The position numbers and the translations under genes were made by a program. The notes beneath the pieces are model-generated. The model was not told the origin of the DNA, did not search any database, and saw nothing but the letters and a program-made list of their open reading frames with translations. DNA of 64,000 nt from Alloascoidea hylecoeti (lineage: Eukaryota). This document shows positions 12,409-60,164 of the stretch, piece after piece (the first letter of the stretch is position 1; each line of letters begins with the position of its first letter). The stretch covers positions 186,001 through 250,000 of the forward strand of contig BCKZ01000006.1 of the NCBI GenBank assembly GCA_001600815.1, written 5' to 3'.

Positions 12409-12480
12409 CTCCGATACGGGGAATCGAACCCCGAACTGCCCGGTGAAAGCGGACCGTGCTAGCCGTTACACTATATCGGA
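12409..12480 (-). tRNA. tRNA-Glu(UUC)
   Basis: Minus strand TCCGATATAGTGTAACGGCTAGCACGGTCCGCTTTCACCGGGCAGTTCGGGGTTCGATTCCCCGTATCGGAG (72 nt). Acceptor stem, anticodon TTC and GTTCGATTC T-loop are present, with a T4 run just downstream. Confidence 0.97.
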
Positions 12481-12833: not shown

Positions 12834-13250
12834 GTCAAGAATACACAAAAATAAGAAGGATAGAAAGAGAGGTTTTTATTTCACTATATATAGTAGAGAT
12901 TTCCTCAGAATTTACATAGTTTCTAGTTATATAATTTAATTGGAAAATATATGAAAAGTTAAAAAAAAGGAAAAGAGAAGAGAGATATATGTCAAGAACA
13001 TATAATAAGAAGATTGGATATAGAAGCTGTTTTTTCACTATATATAGTAGAGATTTCCTCAGAATTTACATAGTTTCTAGTAATAGAATTTAATTGGAAA
13101 TTATATAAAAGGTTAAAAAAAGAGCACCATCACAACTATGAGATTGAAAGTTAAAAAGAAGAAGAGGTTTTATACTCTATGAGTGATTTACTCACTTTAA
13201 TAGTTTCTAGTTAGAAGTTTTAATCGGAAATTATATGCATAAAAAAAAGC
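12834..13250. repeat. Tandem repeat of about 155 bp (two close copies plus a third degenerate copy)
   Basis: TTTCACTATATATAGTAGAGATTTCCTCAGAATTTACATAGTTTCTAGT occurs at about 12879 and 13033 (period 154). TAGTTTCTAGT…TTTAAT.GGAAATTATAT recurs at 13201. Confidence 0.9.
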
Positions 13251-25047: not shown

Positions 25048-25968
25048 ATGACCGATGAAATACTTAAGATTGAACAAATTAATGGTTATTTTTGCCTTCC
25101 GATAGTATTACCAACTGTTAATTTTAAATCATCATCAAATTCAAAATCAAAATTAAATTCAAAAGATAATTATCATTATACATATCTTCGAAAACATCAA
25201 ATCCCAAAATCTAATAATAATTCGAAAGAACTAATTAATGAATCTGAAAGATCGTTATTTTTTATAAATTTACCAAAGGATACAACTAATGAATCAATGA
25301 AAGATATTTTCCATCAAATTGGAGGAGGATTAATTGAAAAAATAACATATGGATTAGATTATGATATAGATATTGGAAATCTAAGTCGAATCGATAATAT
25401 TGATGAAAATGATGGTAAACAGAGATTAAATTTACCAAGAGATTGTGGACTAATTACTATGGTTGATAAATCAGCTTGTTCTTTAACAATTAATCAGGTT
25501 AAAAAGATACATTCTAAAAAAATTAATATTCCCAAATGGCCAAATTTATCATCATTATCAGGCAAACAATATTACTTATCGCAATATAAAAAAAATTTCC
25601 CGAGTTCTGACTCACTTTCAAATAATGTTAATAGTTTTATGATCGAATTTAATAAATTAGAAGAAGAACGATTAAACAATATTAAATCATTAAAAAATAA
25701 AATAGATGATGATGGTTTTGAACTTGTTGTTTCAAATAAAAGAAAATCAAGTGCAGGATTAAATTTAATTCGAAAAAGAGATGATGATAATGATGAAGTA
25801 ACATTAAAGAGAAAGAAGAAAAATGAAAAGAAAGAAAAGAAAGATTTTTATAAATTTCAGATAAGAGAGGTTAAAAAAGAAAAAGTTAATAGATTAGTTT
25901 TGAAATTTCATGAAGATCAAGATAAGATTAAAAAATTAAAAGAAAGAAGACTATTTAAACCATTTTAA
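25048..25968 (+). CDS. RRP7: rRNA-processing protein Rrp7
   Basis: HYTYLRKH, RSLFFINLP, IDDDGFELV, EKKDFYKFQIRE…F.ED..KI..LKE.R.FKPF. Confidence 0.92.
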   Translation: MTDEILKIEQINGYFCLPIVLPTVNFKSSSNSKSKLNSKDNYHYTYLRKHQIPKSNNNSKELINESERSLFFINLPKDTTNESMKDIFHQIGGGLIEKITYGLDYDIDIGNLSRIDNIDENDGKQRLNLPRDCGLITMVDKSACSLTINQVKKIHSKKINIPKWPNLSSLSGKQYYLSQYKKNFPSSDSLSNNVNSFMIEFNKLEEERLNNIKSLKNKIDDDGFELVVSNKRKSSAGLNLIRKRDDDNDEVTLKRKKKNEKKEKKDFYKFQIREVKKEKVNRLVLKFHEDQDKIKKLKERRLFKPF

Positions 25969-26200
25969 ATATTTTATATTTTTAACTAACTTTTGTATTG
26001 TTTATAATTACTGTTACTATTAGAAGGAAACAAATATTATAATACTAATATTTTGAAATTTATAACTATCTTGAGTCTTGATTAAAATTAATTATATATT
26101 AAACAAGTTAACAAACAAATTAAGCAAATTAAACAAATTTAAACTAAGCAAATTGTAAATAAATAAATAAATAAATCATATAATTAATTAACTAAAACTT

Positions 26201-27406
26201 CTATAGCTTACCTCCAGGTGTTCCATTAATAATAACTCCTTGTTCATATTGAATCCCCTCCATCTGTCTTAACATTATCGATGGATGCTTTCCTTGATCC
26301 TGTAACTCTTTAAATATAACAACAGGTTTCTCATCCAACCCTAGTATTCTTTCTTGATCACCATAGCAAATGACTAAGGCGTACTGCCTTGAATCATCAT
26401 TAATTCTATGTCTTCTCATGGCAGCCTGTAATACTTTATTACATGAATCGTCCTTGGAAGCCCGTAGTTGTTTTAAAGGCTCGTTTCGCGGTGCTTGATA
26501 GGTTGAAGGAGTTGATGCTTGTGATCGAGATGGAGACGTGGGAGATGTCACAAAGGAGTTTTTATGTACTCCTGCTAGCAATGTCGAGGATGATGAGTTG
26601 GAAGATAGTAATTGATTTTGTAAAAAATCTGGATCTGTTGGAGATACACCCTTTTTTTTAGAATATTTTCGAGATATTGATGCATTCGACGCAGATAGAT
26701 TATTCGTTGATTTAGTAGGCGATATTCTAGAATACATTGAAAGAGAGGGAGAAAGAGGGAAGTTTGAATGTAAATGATCTGGAGTAGGTAAAGGTTTTGA
26801 ATCTTTGACGATTTTAAAGACTGGTAGTAATTCTTCACGTAATCTGTTAAAATTGTCAGTCAATTTCTTAAGTTCTTTATTTGTAACCACTAACGATCGA
26901 TCTTTTGCAGTCAGTTGTCGTTGTAGTTTGGTCATATCATTGGATATTTTTTCACTTATAAATGAGGAAACGGTTGATTCTATGGATGTGGATGTCGTCA
27001 GTGTGCCTGTACTTGAAGTGTTGTTGTTAAGGCCAGGAGCAGAAAAGAGGGAAGACGAGGAAGAATTCCGCAGTAAATATGGATCCGGATGGATATTGTA
27101 GGCCGACAGGAGGTCATTGGTCTGCTTCAAAATGGCCAGACGGTGGGATATCGACCTGACCCCGATGTCCTTAAGGTCTGTGTTGGAGATATACGGAAGA
27201 ACATCGCCAGATATATTATTATCCACAAAGGCCTGGGTATACTGCGAGAAGCCGACATTCGCAAGCCAGACAGACACGGATTGGGCGGACCACTGGAGCA
27301 CGTTGTCCGCGTAGTCGAGGTCGCTGGAGGACAGGGCGGAGAAGACGGATGACGAGGGGGACGGGGCGATGATGGAGGCGGATGTGGAGTCTTCTAATTT
27401 GGCCAT
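26201..27406 (-). CDS. STE50: MAPK adaptor Ste50 (SAM and RA domains)
   Basis: SAM domain [10 protein letters not shown]…F..NNISGDVL…DLKDIGV…HRLAILK. RA domain [21 protein letters not shown]…[12 protein letters not shown]…P…FK.L…GKHP.IMLR. The listed start at 27418 is TTG; the first ATG is at 27406. Confidence 0.92.
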
Positions 27407-37619: not shown

Positions 37620-40571
37620 TCATGGGTGTCCGTGACTTGTACCTGGCCAAGCCGCAATTGAAACGGGTCCTTGTTCTGATAAATCATCATCTTCGACAGT
37701 GTATATCTTCTCCTCAAAGCCATCCATTTTCACCGATTGTAATTTTTGATTTAAAGCATCTGTTAATCCATCGACTAACTGTGTAGAAAGATGTTTTTCC
37801 GTTGGTGTGTTTTCTGAAAGAACCTTCTTTAATGCTTTAACTAAAGATATTGAAACGGAATCGTCAATATTTAATTCCAAACGAGAAGAATAAGAATCAT
37901 GTTCTGACCCCTCATCATTGTGCGGCGCATTTGTCGACGAAATTCCCCCTTTACTAGCGTGTAATAGCAGTAAAGCAGCATAATATAACATAACATGGAT
38001 ATAAACAGGGACATATCTTAGGTTACTAATGACATCCTCATCCGCTGTCGCCATTTTTAAAATTGCGGTTGCTGATGATATTGCTATGCTATCAGATATG
38101 AATGCTTCCTCCCTACTTCTTTTGTCCAGTTCTTCTTTTGATAGATTACTTCCAATATTGGAATCTTCGGAATCGTTGCCAAGTTGAACCCATTGTGGTA
38201 AATGACCCCCCTTAAATTGTAGTTTTTTCATAACAGTGGAGTTGATATGCATTTTAGCGAAATTATAATGAAGTAACGTAGACTTAGAAGGCCATGCATT
38301 TTCTCTAGTTGGGGTTAATAAACAAGCCCAACTAACCATCCATTTATCTAATTCAATATTTGTTTTCCATGGAATACCAAGAACAGATGGAGGCAGTATA
38401 TCCCAGGACCATTGATCAAAAATACCACGAATTGCAGAATTATATTCAAGTTGTGATACTAATCTCATATCATTATATTTATTGGAAAATGATGTTTTTG
38501 CTTCTTTTTTACCTAATAGTTTAGTTAAAGTACCACCTTGTGACAAAGATCTATTTTCTGGTGTATCGGAATCTGAGCCCTTTAATATCATTCTTGTTGT
38601 AGATAACCTACGCGTTGGTATAAACCCTTCTCTTAATAATCCTTTTAAATATTCACCAAGTGTTGAATCCGGTGCTTCATTTAAATTAATATCTAATAAT
38701 CTTCGGGAATTTGAGATAGCACTATCTTTTGAAACCATTGGAGGTCTATTATACGCTAGACTCTGATTTCCATCAATTATAAATAATAAATACCATAGTT
38801 TTAATCTATTTGTAACAACTGGTGGATCATTCGAATTATTTCCAAAACATGATGATAAATTTCTATGCATTATTGGTAGGTTCAATCCAATACTTGTTGC
38901 AAATCTTAAAGCAATCCCTGTTAACATATAACTGTCAGGTAGCCATAAACTTGCAATACATAATGCAAATATTATATTTATTGAATCAGATTCATATTTG
39001 GATATATTAAATAGAATATTTTGACATAACAGTTCAAATTCTTTCTTCATTGGTTTATAAAGTTTATTTAATGTTGTATGATGAATGCTTGAAATTGTTG
39101 TTATAACTGCAACTAATATTGGTGATGTTTTCCAAATCATATCAAAATTATTATTTATGAATTTGATTCCAAATAAATGTGGCTCAATATTTTTTTCAAA
39201 ATGATCAAATAAATCATTTGCTTGTTTGTAAGTTATTACACCAGATTTTCTAAAGTCGACTAATATTTCTCGAGGTTTAATTAGAGTCGTAGAAAAGTTA
39301 TTTTCTGGTATTTCAACTGTTTGAATAGACTTTGAAAGTTTTGGTACACTGGGCTCTTTATCATCTAGTGTTTTATTTTTAACCGGAGAGCTCTTAGAGG
39401 AGGTATATGGACTAGGAGAATCGAAAAAGGAGAATTTCTTGCCATCGAGATTTGGTGTTGGTAGTATATCTAAATTTGACAGTTTGTCGGTTGAGTTTGA
39501 ATTTGAATTTAAATTGGAACGTGTTTTAAATAATTGATATAAACGTTTTTCTTCATCATCCGAAAATAAAGGAACTCCATTAACTGACGAGGGATAAACT
39601 AATGATAGATCCGTAGTTGTGTTTGAAATATGAGAACTGTTTAACTGAGAAGATGATGCTATAGGGGGATCAAACAAGTTTGGGGCATTACTATTAACTG
39701 GTATGGAGATACTAGAGTCATAAGGAGCTCCTAGTTGGTTTGGAGGTTGAAGTGAATTTTGGAAAAGCTGTTGTTGGCCCAGCTGAAGCGGAGGGATATT
39801 GATCATATTTGTATTGCGGATATTAGGGTTTATTTGCAAATTTACATTGCTATTTAATGATGGCAGATAGAAGCTGGAGGCTGCTTGACTATTACCTATG
39901 CTTGAAGGGGAGGGGTCTGACCTTCTGTCCAAATGGTCGCTATTCTGAGACGAAAATCCATAAGCTCCGAGAGAACTTGAAGGAAATGAGGGGAGTTGTT
40001 GAACTTGTTGATTGATATTTGTATTCACATTTGTAGACCCTAGACCTCCAAATCCAGATCCGATGCCACTATTAGTGTTTGCCTTTAAAATATCCAGTAT
40101 TCCTTCCAGAGTTGTTCCAAATGACTCCAATCGTGTTTCCACTGCTGTTTTCCACTCTATATTGCCTGCCAATGGGCCATCAATCAAATCTGAGGAGTTC
40201 GTAGAATAGGCAGGGATTTTCATCTCAAAAACGCATTCAATGTGATGGTCACGACACCGCTTACAAGGGGCTTGTCCTTCATGTTCACAACGAGTCTGTA
40301 TTGATACGTTAGAAGGTTGGGTTCAAGCAAAAAGAAAGCAACGTATTACACTTACCTTGGCTTTCCTACAGGATGTACAAGCCTTTAGTTTCTTAACCAG
40401 AGGTGTATTAGGTCCGTTTTTCTTCGAGGGTGTGGGTTTTGTGCTATTATCATTTTTTATCGACCAGGCAGTGGTGAGAGTGCGTGGGATCTTTGTCTTT
40501 CGGGCAGTAACGGTTGCACTCGGGTCCGCTTCCGTGAAATGGACTTCATTAGGAAACTGATGTTTTTTCAT
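37620..40571 (-). CDS. Zn(II)2Cys6 fungal transcription factor, 2 exons: 40571-40356 and 40295-37620
   Basis: Phase-0 intron 40296-40355 (GTAAGT…CTAAC…CAG) assembles ACTSCRKAK|TRCEHEGQAPCKRCRDHHIEC. A fungal middle-homology-like region (RLKLWYLLFIID…L.YNRP) follows. Confidence 0.9.
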
Positions 40572-43500
40572 TTCATGATCATTCTCAAACAGTAATTATA
40601 AGTTGAAATGTCCTCTTTTTTTCTTTTGTTAGTGCCTATATTTACTCACTTGCGAGTGTTGCTGGTAGGTGCGGCGTAATTTGTAGTACGTTAAATTATA
40701 GTAAAACTTAATTGGAGTATGAAGGGTAAATAAGGTTTATGCTTAATATGTATCTCTATTATCACTCCTTTCGTGAGTCTTTTTTTTTTTTTGTGTATGA
40801 CAGTTTCACCTATCCCAATGCGACAGGACTGTAACCTGGAGAAACTACTCTTGATCTACCATCTTGAGGATTCCGTTGCCGAGTTTCTGTCTCCTTGTTT
40901 CACGAATCGGATAAGTAGCTCTAAGTGGAATATGCAACCTTTTATAAATGCTCATGATCAATCCACAACCATACACGAGTAAATGAAATCCAGTTTCTAG
41001 AGCCTCCTGTTTTGAGTATATATGTAGATAGAGTACTAATATTAATTTTCGTTCCTCGAATCTTTTAAAATTTAAACTTCACATTTCTCCATAGATTTAT
41101 ATACGTATCTAAGTTTTAGCACCACTATAGCTAAATTCTTGAAAGATAATATAATAATTAAACGCATTTTAGATACAGGTAACTGGCTCGAAATATTAGT
41201 TGAAATAGGGCATATATTTGAATTTCCTTGATACTTTTAGGTGCTCGGAAGCTCAACCGGTTCCAATATATTGATCATCTTCTCTTGGATATGTAAATAT
41301 GCTATAACTAGCTGTATTTTCAATATGAGTTTTTACATGGAAAAGCTCGCCTCAAAGCTTAAGAGTTAATACTTAATATTTAAAGAACACGCTCTCATAA
41401 ACATACACCCATATTGTATATCTTATCACCATTTTATCTAGCTCTTTTGGATAATCTATTAATTCCAAATATTCAAAAGAAATTGTTATATTCAACAGTT
41501 TATGCAAGGCTGATGATCAGTACTACCATTGTTAATACCTCCAGAATCAATACCATTACACCTGTAGAATCTATGGCCAATAAAAAACAATCATTACAAC
41601 AAGATTATAAAAATTGTCCTTGGCTTAGGTGTTTACAAAGCTTTTGTGAGTTATAGGTTTTTCATAATTATAAAATGAATTTTTTAGCTAAGTCACAGCT
41701 AGACAGATATATATGAATTTGAGAAACTGTCTTCTATTGAAATATGAATAACTTTACAATTGAGAGTTTATTTAGAGAACATCCCATGTACCAATCGCAA
41801 TATAGCCTATATATAAATTTTATTAGGCATCAAAAAAGGAAATTATTCATGATCAAGTTTTAGGGGTAGAAACCTGGATGAATATTCGAATCACTTAACT
41901 AAAAGCTATATCACGTATACATATATAATTGAAACGCCACATTTATTTATTTTTTGCCAGTCTGCCAGTTCTGTCCTTTTAGTTATTGTTTAAGAGTGCA
42001 AGATTTGAATATAGTAGATGATAGTCGACCGGTCTATGAGTTATTTGTGACTTCTGTGTGTCAAAGGAAAACCTTAAAAAACTTACGTACAGTCTATATT
42101 ATTAAAATTAGGTGCTTACCCCTTTTAGGTTAATGTTGTTTAACTTTAAAACTTTTAATGCCCTGAAAAATGCATTGATTTAATTTTTGTTGTATTTTGC
42201 AATTGGTGTTGAAGATTTTTTATTGAAAATTCTTCAGAAACATGTTATATGTAATGTTTCATGGCCCGGACAGAGAAATTTTTTATATTTTCAGCTGGTG
42301 TAATCAGTAATATTAAATAAAAAATTTTTATTAAACAAGCCCTTCCCCGATTGCAACATCCTACAACAACTCCAGTTGGTGTTTATAAGTTGAATTTACT
42401 ATACACTACTTTTTGACATTTTCGGCAAATAATACACAATTGATTATAAGCTCAAGTAAGTATAAGCTTATGGACCTTATACACATGTGGTATTAAATAT
42501 GGCTAAGTAGGGCCACCAGGGGTAACGATAGCATGAATATGTCTATAATATTTAATTATATCGCAACCAATTTGTTTAATGATAAATAAATTTTAAAAAC
42601 TGTGATCATTCTGTAGACTCTATATCATTAAGTATATAGTATTAATTAGGTTTTGTATTTTTCCGATGTATAATTTTTAGCAGACTTTATACAATTTTGT
42701 TTACTTTTTGTCTGTATTAAAGATAAATATAGCTGACTAAAGTCATAGCATTTCATTCCATGTATTTTAATCAAGAGTTTAAGATTATATATGTGGTCTA
42801 TTGCGACAAATCATATTTTTGCTCAATAGTCCAATTATATAGACTTCATGATCATAGCTACAGATAGAAGTTCGTATTAATATTCTACATATATTTATAC
42901 ATGTGTCTAAATAACGTTAATGTATAACAAGTGGTCTCTACCCGATATATGCCAAATAAATTGATAATTATAAACCGCATACGCATTCTAAAGAATATTT
43001 TAGCTTATGATTAATCATGAACTATCCCAGATGAAAGAAACATAATTATAAATTTCATTGAAAATTAAATTGTTCGAGGGTAGAGGCTAGGCACGAAGTT
43101 GATTAGATATCGTATATATCTTATATTATTTAGTTTAGAAACAATAATGAGCCAATTATATATCCTTCAATTCCCAGAACTCTTATATACTCACACCTGT
43201 GCTGTACCGGTGCCAGGTTTACTGATACCACATCTTGTATACGTGGGCAATACATGTTAATCAAAAAAAAATTATTGGTTGGTTATTCATAATTTCAGAG
43301 TGTATAATTTTAAGAGAAACTAATTATTCAAGGTTAAAAAGTTAAGGCGCGATTCTGATTAAATATCAGGTTTAGTCCAAGTACAATAACGAAATGATTT
43401 TATTTATATTATATATATAACCTACTCGATATATTTTATAGGATATATATTTTCATGAAATAGTTTTAATAGAGTATAATCTCATAACAAACTGGAAAGC

Positions 43501-44865
43501 TTTAAAGGTACAACATCTATTAAATATATTCGTCATAAGCTGAGGTAATATTTATATAAGTTATAGTTCTTGATAATGAATCTTTATTACTTCAACAAGT
43601 GAAATTCTATAAAGCAATTGATTTTAAGTTGATAATAAACCAATAACCATCATCCTAATATTAATCAGTGATTCCCTCTTCATTCATGATCAGGTTCAAG
43701 CTTAATGCTAGTATTCTTCGTGATCACACCTAGCTAGCTATAATTATAAATCACGTGTAAATTTTAATACTATATCCTGATTAATATATTGATAATGATA
43801 TTCATCATGATCAAGATTCTGATTGTACTATATTCAATCATAAAGTCCTATAATAATAACGTCAGTGTCATGGAACCATATTTAAATCAAGGTACTGCTT
43901 ACAAATATTGTCTACGGGTCTATCAAAGCTATATAATAATATTGAACAGTTGCGATTGTGATTTCAACTCCGAATTCAACGTTCTCGTTTAAAATAAATA
44001 AAAGTTGTTGTATACGATTAAGCGCTAGTGCTAATAAGTGTCTGATTTACGTACGCTATTGGTTATCAACGGTAGTTGTGAATACAACAAAATCTCATGA
44101 TAAAAAAGTTCCGATTGTTTATATACAGAAAAGATCTGGATTTGCGATCTGTTTGTCTCTTTCTAATATGTTTATCCCAACAACAAATTAATTTAAAAAA
44201 GAAAGTAAGAAACTATATATACGTATGTGCATGGTTAATCAGATCTATTTAAGATTATCTTGCTAGATTTAAGCGTATAGTGAACATCTTAGAGAAGTAT
44301 ATAGGCAATGCAAACTGCATTGTTATTGAAAACGTTTTGAAGATAAAAATATATGAGATCAAAAGCTACGTATCTTAATATTCTTTCTCTCTATAAATAT
44401 TATTTATCGAGTTATCTGAACATTTCACAAGAAGTGTATACCGGTACGTAATTATTGCTATCGATGGGTAAAGCTTATACAAACTAGTTATACTTATATA
44501 TTAATCAAACTTATTATTTAGTTTAAACCCCAATTCATCAGCCCTCTAGATCTTTCTAGAGTCCAAAATAAATATAAACTAGTTGTACTACATGTATAGC
44601 TTTGAGCCTTAGACCTGATTATATCACGATATTAGAGAGATTTTCATTTATAATTTAAAGTAAACTTATACTACCTACTAGTGATTTTTTATAAGCGTGC
44701 CCACTGCCTATTTTATTGTCATCAATAACTTTGACTACCCGAATAGTTGTATTTTGAACTTCGAGGCATATCTTAATATTCACATAGTTGAATTCAAGCT
44801 CAAAATTAACTATAAAACTTAAGGCCATATGCAAAATCTTCACTACACTTTTGAATAGGTAAAAA

Positions 44866-45019
44866 CACACAAACTAAATGATAACAGCAGGGATAAAAGA
44901 CTAACAAAATAAACTACTCTTTCCCAAAATTAATCATTACATCCGTAACAAAACATAACGGCAAAGTAATAGTCATCCCGTTAGTCTCTTATCCCTGCTG
45001 TTAGGACGCAGCTTGTGTG
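44866..45019 (-). ncRNA. Candidate structured hairpin RNA (pri-miRNA-like); alternatively a small MITE
   Basis: About 55 bp of pairing with 8 G-U wobbles that form only on the minus strand. TATAAAAAGG lies upstream at 45150-45141. The inverted repeat is certain; its nature as an RNA gene is inferred. Confidence 0.55.
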
Positions 45020-48000
45020 AAGGATTAAACAAAAGTATTTCCGGATACTCGAAGCAATAAAAAAAACTTAGGAAGAGCCTGATGATGAAAAATAAAGAAA
45101 AACTTAGAGTGTGGAAAAAAATCCGGAGGGAATGTGGTGGCCTTTTTATACTTCAAAAAAATAATACTCAAGTTCTATTTTTTAGGAAAATCCTCCATAC
45201 TAACCTTCTGAATGAAATATTTTGCAAATTATTTTTTTTTCGTATTATAATACATGTACCGGTAGTGAAAATTTCAGTCAATCAATCAATTAACTAATTA
45301 ATTAATTAATCAGTTACGTTAATGGCGAAAATTGCCGCTGAAAAGGAGATCAACAGAGAAATAAATGCCTTTCAGTTGAACAATATCTTTCTCCATCAAC
45401 CAATAAAAAAGAATTGAAGACTTGGGTTAATTAGTCGCAGCCCATCTTACAGAAATTCTCTCCTGTGCATTAATAATACTTGACTATGTCAGCAAGCATA
45501 TGCTGCATATTATATATATAATATTAATTGCAATATTATCATTAATATTATATAGTTATGATTCAAAAAACAGTAAACTAGTCACCAAATTTTTTACATG
45601 TTCTACAAAAATATGTCTCAAATGGCCATATATGGTACTGCTTAAATGTTGAAATCTTATAATAGAAGAAGTCTTAAAATAATAGCCATATATTTCGAAG
45701 GAGCGCTAGCCAATATTGATATTATGTTTATTAAACCCAGCTATATATCGATATCGATATCCAGTTAGTCATATTATCAGTCAACCAGCCTAAATATTCA
45801 TGTAAATCCATTGTATAGTGCTTATCACATGATGTATATAATAAATATTAACTTCAGAACACATATGTTTAAAATTTAATTAAATATATTATATAATATG
45901 TTTTATGATGTTGAATTTTTCAGGTTGGGATAAGTAATAATATTTCTTTTACCTTCGATATTTGTTTGAGATATATCACGTTCTTATGATTTTAGTAAGT
46001 TCAGTTACTTTTTTCCCGTCCCTTCCTTCAGATTATATTAATTTTATTGGTCAAGATTATTGGAGATATATATGAGTGTCAGGTCATAGTTACTTTCCTT
46101 ATGCAAAACAATTAAATTATTCATAAATTATGCGGGAGTGTGAAATTGTTATAGATATATGAAATATAAGAATTTTTATGGACATGATAATATATATTTA
46201 ATAGTTATGTATGAAATACTAAGAATATACAAGCGTAAGTGAAGCTTCATGATAATTAAGTCTATGTGTTACTAATTATAGCTATAGACCTTACAAAAGA
46301 AGCCAGAATTGAAATATTTTGGCTCTATGTGGCATCTAGATCTATTTTGAGAGATCTCCAATCGGAATTCTACCTTCTGTTTTTGATATGAGTTGTTATT
46401 ATATTTAATATTATGTAGAATATCGATATCTCTTCCTTGATTAGTTTGTTGTTATACGTACAGGTATAGGGTTTATGTAAACAATTCGAGCTCTAATCAT
46501 AATTCATATATGGATAGTTAACTGTCAATCGTTAGATCAATACAGCTATGGGTGAGTATATTCCAATGAAAATTAAAATTAAAGCACAAAATAACCACTT
46601 TAATTCTAAACTTAGTCATGGTTTAACTATATACGCCATTGTCAAATCTTTAGAGTCTTTCAACTTTGAATTTTGTTTAGAATTAGAATCCTGGATGTAT
46701 ATATATATATATAACTTATAAGCCTTACATGTTTACTCGGATACCATACTTAATTATAAGCTATAGGCTATATAAATATGTTGTTCCTTTAATTCAGTCC
46801 ACAGTTTAGAAATTTTTAAGGAATTTCTGACTAGTTAGATCGCAATATTATCATATCTAAAAATCATATAACATAATATATGCTACCTTATATTATTTAA
46901 CTTAATCAACGATTGTCAAGTATTAATAATATATAAAACTAAGATGAATCAATTATACTAAGGGTGAGGTAGATCAATTCGTTTAAGGCGATCATAACAC
47001 ATATAATTTTTGCCCTAATTTTTTCCACAGACATGACCTTTATTATAGTACAATGAAACTATATCAGTACGCATAAAATAGAATTCGAAATAATCTAGTG
47101 CTATGTATAGTCATTATAAAGGAAACTTAGTTATAACTAATACCCCATTATACAGCCTACATATAGGCGGATGTAATGGTTGCTTAAAAGAAGAACTCCA
47201 TATATCTTATAATTACGTTCATTGATGAAAAGCATAAGTGAAAACTACATGTATACTTTATAGCGCTAGCTATAAATATATTTATAAGCTAGTATATTTT
47301 GCGATATTAGTCCTGTTAATGATTTATGTAAGCATATTTGATCATTAACACCTCATGAGCAATTACAATTTCTATGTATAATTATAAAGCTAGCGAAAAG
47401 TTAACAATATAACTGTAAAGTTCATAACTGCGACCATATAACTATACTCTACTACATACTGCTAGCGCTTAAGCTTTGGAAATCTTACTGTTTCACTTCT
47501 AGACATGATGTATGTACTCTGCTGATTGTTGAAATTTTATTTGTTATGATTAATATGTATAAATTTCCAATTGTAATTACCATATTAATCAGCATTAGTT
47601 CTAATAATTAATTCATTAACTAGTTAACTTCTGAACTTCAGTTATACAGTTAGCTAGGATCATATTCTTCTCTTTTGTTAAATTATGCTCTTGCAATTGT
47701 ACTTATAAGAGATGGATTGTCTTTTGTTAGCATATATAGCCATAAGCCTAAAAACAGATCAACAAAATTATAGTCTAATATTGTTAGGCTTGACATTCAT
47801 ATTAGTAAATGTGTATCATGATCACATATGAACTTCATTATTGCTCCGTCATATTAGTAATTATAAAATATGAAAAGTCTCATTAACTATAGAATATTTC
47901 ATTTAATCAGATTTGCATATTTAGAAGTCTATGAATATTTCGAATCAAATGATCATAAGTGATTATAAATGTTATTTGCTAGCTAAGCTTAAGGAATATA

Positions 48001-48140
48001 GAAATTCCACATCATATAGCTAATTATAATTATGTATTTTTTATCTTCCAGCGCAAAGTTCAACATCCTTTAAAACCAAATAAAAATATAATTCCAATTT
48101 ATTAATTTATAACCACGAATTTAAGCTTAAATGAAGCAGA

Positions 48141-48174
48141 TCAAGTTCAAGTTCAAGTTCAAGTTCAAGTTCAA
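48141..48174. repeat. (TCAAGT)n microsatellite
   Basis: Five perfect units plus TCAA. Confidence 0.9.
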
Positions 48175-50854
48175 ATAAACAATATTTAAATGTTTTCGCC
48201 CATCCTACAGCTGTCATTATATAATATCCCTAAATATTAATATATACCACCATACTCATGTTATAATTATGGTTTATTATTTCAGGAATTTCAATATAAT
48301 CACTTCGAAGTTTCAGATAATTTCCATTACTCTCGATGATGAATAAAAGTATTGAAGTAAACTTTCTTTTTATGATAATAACCCAGTTGTAGTTGATAAC
48401 TCTTGATTACAAAGGAAGCTCATATTAATATCACACTTGAAGATATAGAAAGAGGAAATTGGAGCATGTAAGGTTTTGAAGAACTATAATCAATTATGTA
48501 TCTAAATTTAACAAATATATACACGTGTAATTACTATTACATCAATAAAAGGAGAGGTGTACCTTAAAAAAGAGTAGCTACCATTGTGAGTATCAATCCA
48601 TAATTACCATTTACAAAAGCATAGTTATATGCTTACATATGTGTTTTAAAATTGAAAGAATTTTAATGATTTATTCCAGAAAGTCAAAAATTTTTATTAG
48701 TTCATCATGAATCTATTAGAAATAGATATCGGAAAATGGGGATAAAGGCTGCTCATGAGGTTTCTTAAGGTCTATAGTTAGTAGAAAAGGAAAATTGAGA
48801 CTATAATTTAAAAAAACTTTACAAAGAAACTGGATATTGACGGTGTATTAACTTCTAATTCTAAGAATACTGCTAAATTACCAGATAGCTCTTAAAGTAG
48901 TAGTATATCTATATTAAAAATAGTCTAGTTTGATGATATATCCAGAACAAGAAAGTATTAAGATTGAGAAGAACAAGTGGGTTACGATTGAGAGTGTTTG
49001 AGATCTAGATTTAATGTGTGATTAATAAAAAAATGATTATAATACACACCAGTCTCAAACTACAGCTGGAATTTCAATTTCTGTTCTCGATAACCAATTG
49101 CAAAAGAAAACAATTATTTATCCTTTGATTAACAATACAAATAAATTCATTATAATTATGTTTTTCTTATTGAATTACCAACAATATGTTATCCAATGAA
49201 TTAACTTATCAGAAAATTTTATTAGGTTACATCTATAACATGAACAGGTCCGACTTATATCTATATTAGTACACCCCATGCTCACTAAAGAGATCTACAA
49301 ACAAAACGTGAAGTTGCTGGCCTATTTTGTGGAAGAATATTCGATTTCTGGTGAGAAGACTGCTCATCTGCTACATATGGTTGGGTCCAATCGGCCCTAC
49401 TTCATAGATGTACCAGAGCCACACAAAACACTCCATCAATTGGAAAATATGAATGAGATATCTTCTAGAGTTACTTCGGAGGTGATTACAAGATTGTACC
49501 TATTCTTAATATTAATGAATTCGTGGAAATGGTGAATCATGCGAAAAACATGGTACCATCTTTACGACATATTCCACCTGGTGAGCGGGACGAAAGAATT
49601 CTAAAATCTATAAAAAAAATAACTACCAGATTCTCCTGTGTATCATTAAAGATATTTAGATTTTATATAGACATTAAATAGTTTTGTTAAAATTTAAATA
49701 ATATGTTTTTTATTAATGGTGCACGATGGACAGTTGTTAGTGTACATACCCTATATACATAAGATAGTAGTTAAAGATTCACCACTGTTCTGTTTTTCTT
49801 TTTAATTATATAATCACAGGTCTATAGGTCTGCCCCTCATACATATTAATATCAATATAAAAGGATTGTACTATGGTGGCAGACATCTAATATAATATAT
49901 GGGCTTTTCCAGACACACTTTTTTGAAAACTCGTCCACCAACCACCGACAATATTAATTGACTTGTTAGGATAGATAGTTGACCGATAAAGTTTAAATCT
50001 CTTTTAATTCATATTTATTGATCTCAGTTAAAGCGTGGACGGCTATTTTTCAAATATAGACCTTTTTTTCCTACCTATACATATCATGTATACACTGCCT
50101 ACTTAATTAGGGGATATGAACAAGCATACGGTATGCGCAATCAGAGTTTCAAGCCTTTGGCTTCTTTACTATGTGCAAATCATGTCTCTATGGAAGGAGG
50201 ACCTAATTTTACAGGTGGTTAGTTATATAAAATCACAGTACTATCTTTGAGGATAGTTTCACAGTAAGCCGAATTTTAATGAATTTGGTAGGGTGGAAAA
50301 CGGGTATGAAATACTGTGTTTTCAAAGGAAAGCACTCTAGTATTTCAGTTATTCAGAAAACTCAAGCAAATGGAAATTCAAAAGGAATGAGATAGTTACT
50401 GGTAGTGAGGGATTATCGAGGAGAAGGCCTGGTAGTTTATTGAAGGGCACAATCGTGATGAGATTTTGGGTTCCGCAATAACAAAGTTTACTAAGCATCA
50501 CAGCATTAATGATAATTAAAAGTTAATTTATGAGCAATACAGCGCTAGTACTTATAGAGGAAGCTATTCTCACTTTTTGTACATATGCAATGTGGATTAT
50601 TCATTACCATATATAGTATCACTGCACATTTTCATATGCACATATCAATAAATAGTATATGCATACCGATATGAATATGTATATAGCCAAATATGGTAGT
50701 TAGCGATTCGTACAAAAATCTGCGCATGTTATTTTTTAGACACTCTTCCAAAAAACGATAGTATTAAATACCTGAAAAGACCTTAAACTGTTCCTTAGAT
50801 GCTAGAGAGTCTACTAGGGTATATAAAATAACATTTCAAATTTAATAATTAGTG

Positions 50855-51738
50855 CTAGTTAACACCATAAACGGTTGCCACTCTACGAGACATGGAGCCA
50901 ATCAGATTAATTATCATTGATATCCTGTTTATGCTTTGAGATGATACACTTCTTGGAGGAGATATATTCCAAATATGAGGCCACTCTAACACCTCTATCT
51001 TCTTGTGACTAAGCCAATTTCGGGATTCCTGCTTTATAGATAGGTGCATTATTCTGGTTGAATTTAAGACCCCCAGTAATCTCATAAAAGGCCTCTTCCA
51101 GAAGCTTTATGTAGGAATGTGTGGTGTCTCCTTTTTTTCTGCTATTAGGATCCCCATCTACTCTATACAGTGAAACACGGCCTCCTTTCCAAATTTCAGT
51201 CCATACCACAAGTCTCATCGATCCACACTTCCTTATATTATTACTATTTTGAAGTCCAAAGGCCAGATGTGACTGTTGTGGAGCATATACTTTTTCAGAA
51301 CATTCGTCACTAAATACAACACCGTTCCAAACGTTCAAGACCACTCCAATCTATTTTTAGATTGTATCGTTCTGTTCCATTGGTTCCTCTCATTTAGAGT
51401 GGGCCTTTAAATTATAAGAATATTTCAAGTCCAGCGTAGAAGCATTCCTAGATGGCCTTTGATATTCTAATGTTAAACTTTGAAGCCAGCTCATTAAATT
51501 TATTCAAGAAGGAGGCCTTTAAAATCTTCAGATTTTGATTTAATACCCTTTCAGAAAGTGTTCGAGGAGACATGTTAGAAAAATTGTTTGTATGTAAAGG
51601 TGCGATATGTTTTTAGGCCTATTTTGGGAACTAGAAGAAGCCATTTATTTACTCAGATTGCAAATAATATGAAGGGATACAGTTGAGGATTCCGATAATT
51701 GGTGATGAGAATGGCCTAAATTAAGTGTAATCACTGTA
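50855..51738 (-). mobile_element. Tc1/mariner-superfamily (DD34E-type) transposon relic
   Basis: WNGVVFSDE, VVWTEI..GGR, FNQNNAPIY (cf. FQQDNAP.H), W…IEVLEWP, LIGSMSRR; frameshifted. A TA-CAGTG terminus at 51738-51732 lies upstream of the transposase. Confidence 0.85.
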
Positions 51739-52359
51739 CCAGGTATATTAGTGTATTATAATATTACAAAATTTCAGGTATTGAAATCATCTCAAAGTGC
51801 TAATGTATTAGGCATACATCCTCTTTGGTGACCTGATTCAATCGAAAGGCAATGAGACAAATTAAGTTACTGTATCCATCGAAGTATCATAATTAACGTT
51901 AACATTATAACTACCCCATTTGACATTTAACCATCGTATATTATAAGGTTCAGATCCAAAACAATTCGTAAGGATACAAATTATACTTTGTTAATCATAT
52001 TTTTATAGCAATCAAAACGTCGGTAGACGTAGTAATATATAATCGTTGATTGATCATAAAACATCAAAAAAACTGTCACTTCTCCCAAAAAGTAAGATCT
52101 ACAATGTTTTCTTTTGATTACTTCCTATTTCGACTCACGCCCATTATACGGGCACAGTAGTATTACTCTAGCTAATGTTGATGTTAACATCGTTGTTCTA
52201 CAATTATATTAGTATGATTACTTTTATTTTAATATTAATCTTTTATACGGAGAGGACAAAATTTAAAGCTAAAATCCATCAAAAAGGTTTTTTTTTCATA
52301 TCGTCAAATATTGTTTATATAATCTAAGTATAAGTACATTGTAATTAAATGCTTTTATT

Positions 52360-54006
52360 TTACAATTTAGATTTGAATTGATCTTCAGTAACACCTTTGC
52401 CCATTGCAGCAGTACTAGTAATACCTCCGGTCACCATTTTTAATAGGTTATCAATATATTCGGCACCAGACCATTTTTGATGTTTGACAACCTCGACATT
52501 GGTATCAATTTCTGGTTGTTGAACAGTTGCACCATAATGTTTCATACCAATTTCACTATATCCCTTTGCAAAGTTATCAACAGCCAAAGCGGTAGTATGT
52601 AAACCAGCTAGAGTGATGAATTGCCAGACATAACCTAATTGTGCGAGACGCTGAATGTAAGTTTTCTGATCATCTGGCGACATAGCTTTTGTCCAGTTAA
52701 ATGATGGAGATAAATTATAAGCAAGCCATTGTTCTGGCCAAACCTTTTTAACACCTTCAGCAAATTCTTTAGCTTGGGCATAATCAGGTAATTTGGATTC
52801 CATCCAAATAAGATCGGCATATGGGGCATAAGCAATTGCACGATTAACAGCGCATTGTGTACCACCTTGGTATCTGTAATATCCCTCTCTAACTCTTGGT
52901 TTCTCCCAATCAAAATAGACATCTTTACCAAGTAAGTTTTTGGCAAATGCACGTGCTTCGTTATTTGATTTATTTGCAGTTGGATACAACTCTTTCTGAA
53001 CAGCCTGGATTAATTGTGATTTGTTGTTATATGAACCTTTATTGATTTCATCGATAATTGCTTCATGGAACAATTTAAGACCAGCCTTTGAGCTCCAGTC
53101 ATCTTCAATCCTTTGAAGAGCATCGCCTTGAAGGCCTTCAAGTTCTGCTTTAACCATAACATCAACCAATGGTGGAAGATCTGGATTTGTTGAACCAATA
53201 ACAAAATAATGATCTCTAAAATCAATAGTAGAAGTAAGTAAAGTTGCAGCTTCGGAATCAGTTCTTGCGACAGCAAGTAAATCACTTCCCAACATATCAG
53301 CAGAAGCTCTAATAGCAACTAATCTATTAATATGCTCTTGAACAGGTACTAAAACTTTACCAGCCATATGACCACATTTCTTTGTACCCGGAGCTTGATC
53401 TTCAATATGAATACCAGCAGCACCACGTTCAATGAATAATTTTGTCAATTTGATGATAGCAGTAAGACCACCATGACCAGTATCTGCATCAGCAATGATT
53501 GGCCTTAAAAAATCAATGTATGGTAATTTAGCACGTTCTTCAGGAGAGAGACTTAATCTTTCTTCACGTTGCTTCCTGTCATGAAATAATTGAGCAAACC
53601 AGAGTTGTTCGGTTTTGTTTGGAACAGTATCGTAAGGATAATCAGCTAAATCAGGAGAAGGTTCATTTGAGGTTGATGCAGTTGAAGATGATTGCCAACC
53701 AGATATGTAAACAGTGTCTAAATATTTGGCCATTTGAGTAACGTGAACGGGATCAAGAGCACCAAAAGTAGCAGAAGCAGTTTTATTTTTATCATGCTCT
53801 GTTAATACACCAAAAAGTTTTTTTGCTTGGTCTGACGAAGGATAATTAATTTTTAAAGTACCACGCTTTTGTGCAATAGCTTCAGCAGTATAGACACGTT
53901 TAGTGTGTTTCCATCTGGGATTGGACCACCATTGCTTTATTTCAGCAACCTCTTTTTCATAGTATTGCTGTTCAGCTTTAAGATCAATCTTTGTGTAGGC
54001 ACCCAT
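52360..54006 (-). CDS. ICL1: Isocitrate lyase with C-terminal PTS1 (SKL)
   Basis: KKCGHMAGK catalytic motif (ICL rather than the KRCGH methylisocitrate lyase type), [19 protein letters not shown]; ends …FKSKL. Confidence 0.98.
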
Positions 54007-54099
54007 TTTAACTAACTAATATCCTCAAAGGGTTATGGAACTTGAAAGGATCAATTATGTTTAGAAAGAATAAGAAAATAAAATGAGGTGTTTTCGGCA

Positions 54100-54280
54100 G
54101 TTTATATACTTTTCATCGGCCAAGGTTGGGGAACAAAATCCGGGGTAGATGGGCGAGCCTCACAAAAGTTCGGACGCGGCCATCTGCATATATGCCTAAT
54201 ACGGTCACGTGCATATACTAACTGCCGTCCGAAGTGCGGAATCTACATAAACTGGCCAATAAAGGACTGGTAGCGACGGA
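54100..54280 (-). promoter_or_regulatory. ICL1 promoter: TATA, Mig1/CreA-like GC box, E-box, CGG triplets, CCAAT
   Basis: TATATAAA on the minus strand at about 54108-54101, AAAATCCGGGG 54135-54145, CACGTG 54206-54211, CCG-N5-CGG at about 54229, CCAAT at about 54256. Confidence 0.55.
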
Positions 54281-58099: not shown

Positions 58100-60164
58100 G
58101 CAATTCATCTAAAACATATTTGACGATTATCCCTAAAAGTATTTAGTAAATTATATCAGCTAATCAAAGTACACACAAAGCTTTCTTTTAATCTGGAGAC
58201 AAATATGATAGAAGAACATTAATCATTTATATGCACCTTCCATTAGTCTAGCTCAAGGTATTTCTCAAATCTATGTGAAGATTCATGGTGATACTGTTCA
58301 ACTTGGAATAAACTAGATTCAGCAAAAAAAAAAAAAAAAATAGAAAAATAAAAAAACGCAATAGGATAAGTTCTTCGAAAAGAATAGCAATTTTTGATAT
58401 GCCAGCAAATATAATTCCAGCGACTATCTATCTTCAGGCTATTCCTTTCTACCTTTCAAAGGACTTACCAAGGAAAACATCTACAGGATAGCTGATAGTT
58501 TGGTACAGTTTTACCGCGGTATTTGAGAACTTATAGATGTTTAGTAGGATATGAATGTACATATATGATGATCTCTTAACTTTCTGGGGGTTACGGATAG
58601 ATCATCAACAAAATATTGATGTTTGTGAATAGGGGCCACTCTATAGGTCATGATTGTAATTCATTCTAGTTTGCGATCCAGTTCATCGGCTAATGGTTTC
58701 ATACTGATTACAAATAGAATACCTGATAGTAGGTTTCCTTGGCGAACACCATTATTAAACGGAAAAGATCCACCCAAGGCACCACTTATCTCAATTAGAC
58801 CACCATTCCGTTGTTTTATTAAGGTCATTATCATAGATTCAACCACTTTACTTCCTTACATTACTTTATCAAAGGTATTTTTTTTTTAAATTAGACTACT
58901 AATTCTGAGTTTTAGAAAAAATGTGCCTTCTGGCCCCAGAATGAAGATCTTAAGAAAGAAGAATACAACGGAGTCCCTCTGAAATGCTGACCCAGTGGAA
59001 GTTCATCTAGGAAGTTTCCCCCGGCTATTACCTGTTGATTTTAAGTTACTGCTTTTCTAACCTTTGAAACTTCTGTAAAGATTATTATTTAGCAGAATCT
59101 CTCCAAATTTTACGGTCATATCTAGCAGAAAGCACCGTTCCCCGTCCGATCAACAGTAGTTAATATATAAGCTACTAAGAGCCACATCGAGTAATACAGT
59201 GGGAGGCCATACGTGAAACTGTGGTGCTGTAACCTATCCACCTGTGTTTGTAAATATAAAGCAGACAATTATGAAACAACTCTAAAATTTCCCTTGTATC
59301 CCAGAGGATCACGAGAGCTAAGTCAAACCAATAAAAGATGGAACGTATACTTGAAAACCTTCAATGAACCATTTGGTAATGGGAAAAAATGGGTCAACCA
59401 CTGGATCTTGATAAGATTATAGAACCAGTCCTAGAAGAAATATTAACTCGTATAAAAACAAACATAAATGAAAAGATAGAAGAGAGATGTTTTCAAAGGG
59501 CATCAAAAAATTACTACTCAAATAACAATAAACCAATTATCCCAAAATGACCTGATAACATTATTAAACCAAGTGCTAAATTGGAATGGAAAAACTCTGG
59601 TGGAAAATCCTTCAAACATCAATAATAAAAAAACCAGGTGGTGTCTATTTCCTACATAGACTAAATTTAAGAAATTATACCCATCACTGGGCTCAAATAT
59701 CCACTATTGAAGATGAAAATAACCCAAGTTTCAAGGAAAATGGAAGAATAAACCAATGCATATTATGTCTGAAACCAAATGTAGAAATCAAGGAGTACAT
59801 ATTCAATCAATGTAGACTAAAGACAATAATATTTGAACATTTTATGGGAAAAGATTATCAACTAAATGAAATGATTTGTGATGCTACAAGAAACACAAAT
59901 GAATTAATTCAAATCAACAATACAGGAGAAGCCATTAGAAACCAGAAAAACCGAATAAGAAAACAACAACATTAGAATCAATAGACAAAGGACTTTTAAC
60001 TGCAGTGGAAGCTGTCAATAATCAGTACTTGTGAGCATACAAATTTATGACATATTTTTAAATATTTATTTCAATCAACAAAATTAACTTTCTATAAATC
60101 AAATTTAATAGTCTAGGTTAAAGAGTTATACTTTTAATATAAAATAATGTATCTAAAAAAAAAA
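58100..60164. mobile_element. Degenerate L1-clade LINE: RT on minus strand (about 59120-58100), C-terminus and poly(A) on plus strand (about 59200-60164)
   Basis: Minus strand: LLNNNLYR, TFDKV, GVRQGNLLSGILF, QYFVDDLS, EKYLEL. Plus strand: LWWKI…CILCLKP…YIFNQC, then ATCT plus A10 at 60155-60164. Confidence 0.85.

Follow-up and report, generated by a model that had tools for sequence, protein, structure and literature searches.

In the yeast Alloascoidea hylecoeti, a 64,000-nucleotide (nt) stretch of assembly GCA_001600815.1 (contig BCKZ01000006.1, positions 186,001 to 250,000 of the forward strand; hereafter the window, whose coordinates we use throughout) contains a discrete 154-nt imperfect inverted repeat at 44866–45019, within a gene-free stretch. 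RNA of the minus strand is predicted to fold into a long hairpin here, and the differences between the two arms are strongly biased towards changes that preserve pairing on that strand. The hairpin structure is real, as is its strand-specific pattern, and an origin by chance is unlikely. Purifying selection that acts on pairing in the RNA of one strand produces such a pattern, and we consider it somewhat probable that the pairing has been maintained at the RNA level. The arm bias is suggestive of a hairpin RNA gene and is not proof of one. The explanation that we tentatively favour is a minus-strand hairpin RNA that would be kept paired by selection and cut into small RNAs by an enzyme of the RNase III or Dicer type.

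The hairpin was delimited from the sequence, by folding and by an inverted-repeat search. The minimum free energy (MFE) predicted for minus-strand RNA of 44866–45019 was −77.6 kcal/mol (z = −12.55), and none of 200 dinucleotide-preserving shuffles was equally stable. The plus-strand RNA reached −49.9 kcal/mol (z = −10.43). When the strands were folded with DNA parameters, the gap was far smaller (−31.7 versus −25.8 kcal/mol). In a scan of both strands with 1597 segments of 160 nt, the two most stable folds (−63.3 and −60.3 kcal/mol) both overlapped the hairpin, against a mean of −24 and a standard deviation of 7 for 160-nt segments of the 64-kb window. The hairpin also persisted as an independent domain when it was folded within a context of 441 nt.

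The minus-strand MFE structure contains 65 pairs in total. The predicted basal stem of 11 base pairs (bp) joins CACACAAGCUG (45009–45019, the 5′ half) to UAGUUUGUGUG (44866–44876, the 3′ half), and two of its 11 pairs are G-U. It is separated from the upper stem by a 5×5 interior region. The upper stem, formed by a 5′ arm at 44959–45003 and a U-rich 3′ arm at 44882–44926, has 31 uninterrupted bp followed by 12 bp with two 1-nt bulges and one G-G mismatch. The apical region (44927–44958, approximately 32 nt) is predicted to be loosely paired and carries a 7-bp tip helix closed by the loop GGAU. A run of five U residues (U5; 44861–44865) lies immediately 3′ of the hairpin. The sequence, the coordinates, the basal stem, the 31-bp run and the bulged 12 bp had all been described in the initial annotation and were reproduced by this structure; the interior region described there as a symmetric 5×5 internal loop is present as well, and it holds two weak pairs.

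The stronger evidence lies in how the arms differ. Among the 65 pairs of the minus-strand MFE structure, 12 are G-U or U-G, and the stem contains no A-C opposition. An ungapped comparison of the outer 47 nt of the arms gave 11 non-Watson–Crick positions: three are transversions and the other eight are all G-U on the minus strand, with the opposite type absent. This count agrees with the earlier statement that all eight transition-type mismatches are G-U on the minus strand. Two-sided binomial tests gave p = 0.0005 for 12 of 12 wobble-type pairs and p = 0.008 for eight of eight. The wobble pairs of the entire hairpin are also unevenly divided between the arms, with a split of 10:2: ten of the 12 draw their G from the 5′ arm and their U from the 3′ arm. 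Within the 3′ arm, changes affected 10 of 15 inferred C positions and 0 of 13 G positions (Fisher p = 0.00025).

The window contains two other inverted repeats, which we used as rough controls. The ratios of G-T on the plus strand to A-C on the plus strand to transversions were 1:2:6 and 1:3:6 for these repeats and 0:8:3 for the hairpin; the mismatches of the controls are mixed and dominated by transversions, unlike those of the hairpin. We also simulated the strand-symmetric decay of a perfect palindrome through 12 transitions and 4 transversions under four models. The observed strand asymmetry of 27.7 kcal/mol was reached in 3, 4, 10 and 9 of 600 simulated decays, respectively.

Under the favoured explanation, the locus would be a single-copy hairpin-RNA element transcribed from the minus strand, presumably by RNA polymerase II (Pol II) from somewhere within approximately 150 nt upstream. 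The transcript would fold into a stem of approximately 65 bp, a long duplex that would be expected to serve as a substrate for budding-yeast RNase III. If the species retains the non-canonical Dcr1 together with Ago1, this stem may be cleaved into 22–23-nt duplexes, as at the palindromic loci of Naumovozyma castellii. The guide would come from the 5′ arm, kept under constraint, and the 3′ arm would be free to drift by C-to-U change. The 5′ arm looks constrained because it supplies the G, and the 3′ arm the U, of ten of the 12 wobble pairs.

The palindromic loci of N. castellii that produce small interfering RNA (siRNA) were reportedly described by Drinnenberg et al. in 2009. Like the present locus, they are inverted repeats in non-coding DNA of a budding-yeast genome whose transcripts can fold into long hairpins, and the hairpin, if transcribed as proposed, would share with them an inverted repeat whose transcript is predicted to fold into a long hairpin. 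On the other hand, the present locus has a single copy, a length of only 154 nt and many G-U pairs. Our species also belongs to a different order, as judged from its isocitrate lyase gene ICL1, which is closest to those of Cyberlindnera and Wickerhamomyces, and it was set against the N. castellii loci by their description only. Of the 22–23-nt reads mapping to siRNA-producing loci of N. castellii, 74.1% come from hairpin-forming palindromic loci (PMC7528652). Dicer and Argonaute are described as patchily distributed among budding yeasts (PMC4629796, PMC5499181). Piwi, PAZ and RNase III domains are absent from the window's 17 open reading frames (ORFs) of at least 150 amino acids (aa), of which 16 were scanned with Pfam and the 17th, ICL1, was assessed from precomputed domains.

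The initial annotation had credited the hairpin with its own TATA box, and the sequence TATAAAAAGG is indeed present at 45150–45141 on the minus strand. A motif search found within it a TATA-like octamer, TATAAAAA (45150–45143), which is on the hairpin's strand and 124 nt upstream of it. The consensus TATAWAWR has 196 matches in the window, 60 of them on the two strands of the surrounding 12-kb ORF-free region, or approximately one per 400 nt per strand. Because such matches are so frequent there, the motif is weak evidence for a promoter. Several runs of T5 to T8 separate it from the hairpin. We considered an RNA polymerase III (Pol III) unit starting from this motif and rejected it, since the intervening T runs make it unlikely. 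Approximately 130 nt upstream of the TATA-like motif, at 45275–45310 on the minus strand, there is also a TTAATTAATTAATTAGTTAATTGATTGATTGA run; it is of low complexity, and all three frames of that strand contain stop codons.

Several observations weigh against a hairpin RNA maintained for processing into small RNAs. Chance alone would place a TATA match on the right strand 40–140 nt upstream in about one case out of four. The energies are less telling than they appear, as strand gaps of 22–25 kcal/mol occur elsewhere in the window from base-composition skew alone; for this reason, the counts of wobble and A-C oppositions are the stronger evidence. Moreover, the hairpin was selected for its bias, and a large scan will yield some biased neutral palindromes by chance. 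Selection on pairing alone predicts no 10:2 split between the arms, which could equally reflect a mutational event confined to one arm and one strand. No Rfam family matched the hairpin, either in the whole window at gathering thresholds or in 40200–52400 at E values up to 5. A siRNA-type target with extended complementarity to the arms is not in sight, because no other contig of the genome run covers the arms and because 18-mers of the arms, with up to two mismatches allowed, found nothing in the rest of the 64-kb window except two low-complexity matches. The arm core likewise occurs within the window only in the two arms and in one chance match with two mismatches. Finally, one survey places RNA interference (RNAi) in roughly 20% of Saccharomycotina species (PMC13017519).

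The extent and copy number of the repeat bear on its origin. Inverted similarity ends at 154 nt: a local alignment of the flanks scored 25, where the null gave 24.7 on average and 32 at most. Because this score equals the null, we rejected the idea of a longer, decayed inverted repeat enclosing the hairpin. To estimate copy number, contigs of one public run were aligned to 44000–54100. The two depth bins that cover the hairpin, of 30 over this interval, had a depth of 60.6, which is that of the single 31-kb contig spanning it. No second contig of this genome run, which covers the whole stretch, matched the hairpin at the threshold of at least 80% likeness, with the caveat that the result rests on the contigs of one run and that filtering may drop records. 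The hairpin is thus single-copy in the genome run examined, unlike the Tc1/mariner-like relics nearby. In the bins at 49.1–49.7 and 51.1–51.7 kb, the summed depth was 288–680, and several further contigs with loose ends align there.

These results are relevant to the alternative that the locus is a dead DNA palindrome evolving neutrally, derived from a local inverted duplication or from a non-autonomous DNA transposon of the miniature inverted-repeat transposable element (MITE) or foldback type. In that case the one-sided C-to-T drift would have come about by chance or through a strand- and arm-specific mutational event, and there would be no RNA function. The genome probably does carry cut-and-paste transposons, with fragments resembling DDE_3/Tc1-type transposases at 50855–51350 on the minus strand and a multi-copy Tc1-like repeat that ends in TA and CAGTG at 51738. 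TA also flanks the inner 118 bp of the hairpin. Furthermore, the 10:2 arm split, which pure pairing selection does not predict, fits this alternative. The initial annotation had expected a MITE to show many dispersed copies bounded by TA. What we found instead is a sequence without a second contig, whose pairing runs through the inner TA dinucleotides and past them into the 11-bp basal stem, so that the inverted repeat crosses these boundaries; the outer 16 nt of the arms are identical at 10 of 16 positions and differ by transitions at three more. Inspection by eye of the minus-strand flanks of the 154-nt unit (...AATCCTT and TTTTTACC...) revealed no direct repeat of 2–9 nt that fits the target-site duplication of a known superfamily. 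A search of the window found the end of the Tc1-like relic at one place only, and the hairpin arms are dissimilar to that end. The observed asymmetry appeared in only approximately 0.5–1.7% of the neutral simulations. We also examined a process like repeat-induced point mutation (RIP) as a cause of the changes in the 3′ arm and rejected it: the changed sites show no CpA preference, and such a process is not indicated because only two of the ten precede an A. On both sets of points, a neutral palindrome is the main rival of the favoured explanation and somewhat less probable than it. If the locus did prove to be a dead palindrome, it would provide a useful caution that a strand bias of 12:0 can arise without function.

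Transposon-derived hairpins have a precedent in Made1 and mir-548, in which palindromic MITEs of the Tc1/mariner type gave rise to microRNA (miRNA) hairpins. The present locus resembles such elements in its short length, its almost complete palindromy and the TA beside its inner repeat, and it lies in a genome with Tc1-like relics. It differs from them in having no other copy in the genome run and no target-site duplication, in that the repeat extends past the TA, and in that its arms are unlike the local Tc1-like end.

Instead of being a precursor of small RNAs, the hairpin might be a structured part of a longer minus-strand RNA, for example part of a non-coding transcript running towards the gene P0001, or an element for stability or termination formed by the hairpin together with U5. 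The strand-specific evidence for pairing would serve this explanation as well as the favoured one, and it has the merit of requiring no RNAi machinery. P0001 (37620–40223, minus strand) lies 4.6 kb downstream of the hairpin in the same orientation, and U5 directly follows the stem. Against this, yeast RNA elements are not known to include a class with so long a near-perfect stem, Rfam has no match at the hairpin, and the T5 to T8 runs argue against Pol III transcription from the TATA-like motif. Rnt1 recognises AGNN tetraloops. The hairpin is like Rnt1 substrates in being a stem-loop in a non-coding region of a yeast genome, whereas its tip loop, GGAU, departs from AGNN. We regard a domain of a longer RNA as unlikely.

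A narrower form of the favoured explanation is a single-copy miRNA-like gene of a Phaffomycetales-type budding yeast, in which a Pol II hairpin would be diced by the non-canonical yeast Dicer, the 5′ arm would stay constant as guide while the 3′ arm drifts from C to U, and the targets would be of the seed type rather than transposons. We know of no established case of microRNA-like RNAs (milRNAs) in Saccharomycotina, and we consider this specific proposal quite unlikely. The locus has in common with fungal milRNAs a single-copy hairpin precursor, a lack of extended complementarity elsewhere and one arm that is possibly more constrained; on the other hand, its stem of approximately 65 bp is longer than is typical of miRNA precursors. 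Hairpin-derived miRNAs are reported in Cryptococcus neoformans (PMC3530498).

The initial annotation had further cited a pri-miRNA geometry as support. A basal stem of approximately 11 bp under a longer duplex does recall animal primary miRNAs processed by Drosha and DGCR8, but the upper stem here is about twice as long. To our knowledge, fungi are without the Drosha/DGCR8 Microprocessor, to which this rule belongs, and the 11-bp geometry is consequently meaningless here. Of that interpretation, the real, strand-specific hairpin stands, with arm differences that fit selection on minus-strand RNA pairing; the TATA box is weak evidence, and the pri-miRNA geometry lends no support.

The distinction between these readings matters in the following way. 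The production of siRNAs from palindromic loci is already known in RNAi-bearing budding yeasts, whereas none of them has an established single-copy miRNA-like gene that evolution has maintained. Arms that had diverged solely by wobble-compatible changes would be sequence-level evidence of such maintenance. The hairpin would then offer a concrete, testable locus in a poorly studied yeast order.

The surroundings of the hairpin form a region of approximately 12 kb (40.3–52.3 kb) in which no stop-to-stop frame exceeds 113 aa, in keeping with the earlier remark that there is no credible ORF nearby. Its core at 42–50 kb has a guanine-plus-cytosine (GC) content of 27–29%, the lowest of the neighbourhood, and the cumulative GC skew plateaus across 40600–52300. 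Possible identities of this interval are an extended regulatory region, a graveyard of transposons and a small centromere of the regional type. That the hairpin is a cruciform acting as DNA in a chromosomal role, at a centromere or replication origin, is very improbable: the ORF-free, GC-poor setting of 40.6–52.3 kb and the repeat-bearing centromeres of 4–7 kb predicted in Phaffomycetales species (PMC13017519) speak for it, but a function in DNA leaves the preservation of RNA wobble pairs on one strand unexplained, the stem is much weaker as DNA, and a Pfam search of 28 frames of the region gave no signal of Ty5-type reverse transcriptase or integrase. The predicted centromeres of 4–7 kb are Ty5 clusters in Cyberlindnera, according to the same source. 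Nothing credible of any kind was found by Pfam in the 28 frames, and the 113-aa frame had no match when it was searched against longer proteins only. With Rfam at the loose threshold, a flavivirus-hairpin match appeared at 43253–43290 (E = 1.3); it lies away from the hairpin, and we dismissed it as chance.

At 50855–51350 on the minus strand, two adjacent frame fragments resemble DDE_3/Tc1-type transposases (protein Atlas scores of 0.95 and 0.92). They belong to the Tc1-like repeat with its TA and CAGTG terminus (50855–51738, minus strand). This repeat and a second one at 49324–49702 are degenerate and multi-copy, with a summed contig depth of 288–680 compared with approximately 60 for unique DNA. 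A Pfam search of five repeat frames at E values up to 10 found no transposase match. The Tc1-type transposase debris is a strong lead and short of a finding, because Pfam and the protein search gave no confirmation. Saccharomycotina are described as having few class II transposons (PMC4316626). Between the hairpin and these repeats, at 48141–48176, there is a (CAAGTT)n microsatellite that attracts contigs of another organism (B, below); it represents a simple repeat rather than a conserved element.

The region is flanked on one side by ICL1 (52360–54006, minus strand; PF00463 from precomputed domains). The nearest named relatives of its product are those of Cyberlindnera fabianii (80%), Cyberlindnera jadinii (79%) and Wickerhamomyces species (75–76%), and one further protein reaches 85%; these likenesses place the organism among budding yeasts close to the Phaffomycetales. 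On the other side lies P0001, which encodes a transcription-factor-like protein of 867 aa. It had no Pfam match, and a metagenome scan for its relatives gave 105 pattern matches, of which 0 were confirmed.

Other sequencing runs provided limited comparisons. Another run carries the label of the same organism; in it, all six listed main-haplotype pieces over 44000–54100 showed 0 differences, including the piece that spans the hairpin (44684–45124). Because every listed piece is equally identical, this run is uninformative on constraint at the hairpin. Runs of two further organisms (B and C) match only parts of ICL1 and simple repeats; they leave the hairpin uncovered and have no bearing either way. 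A two-arm pattern gave 0 matches in the metagenome scan, and an arm pattern gave 0 matches each in the viral and prokaryote collections. A wood-decay metagenome run also contains sequence of this organism. The second same-organism run includes another ICL1-bearing contig, of 8282 nt, that aligns to 52359–53949 at a depth equal to that of the main contig. It differs from the main contig at 89 positions in 556 nt and at 179 in 916 nt, a divergence of approximately 16–20%, and may represent a hybrid strain, a diverged paralogue or a mixed culture.

Elsewhere in the window, a lone 5S ribosomal RNA (rRNA) gene lies between protein genes at 59108–59235 on the plus strand (Rfam, 49.6 bits); the 5S genes of this yeast are therefore dispersed and not confined to the ribosomal DNA (rDNA) repeat. 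A transfer RNA gene, tRNA-Glu(UUC), at 12409–12480 is followed at 12850–13248 by two to three direct repeats with spacings of 154 and 130 nt (families D1 and D2). At 25048–27406, an RRP7-like gene adjoins a STE50-like gene with SAM and RA domains. RRP7 and STE50 are adjacent in Saccharomyces cerevisiae as well, which suggests that their adjacency is a case of conserved synteny.

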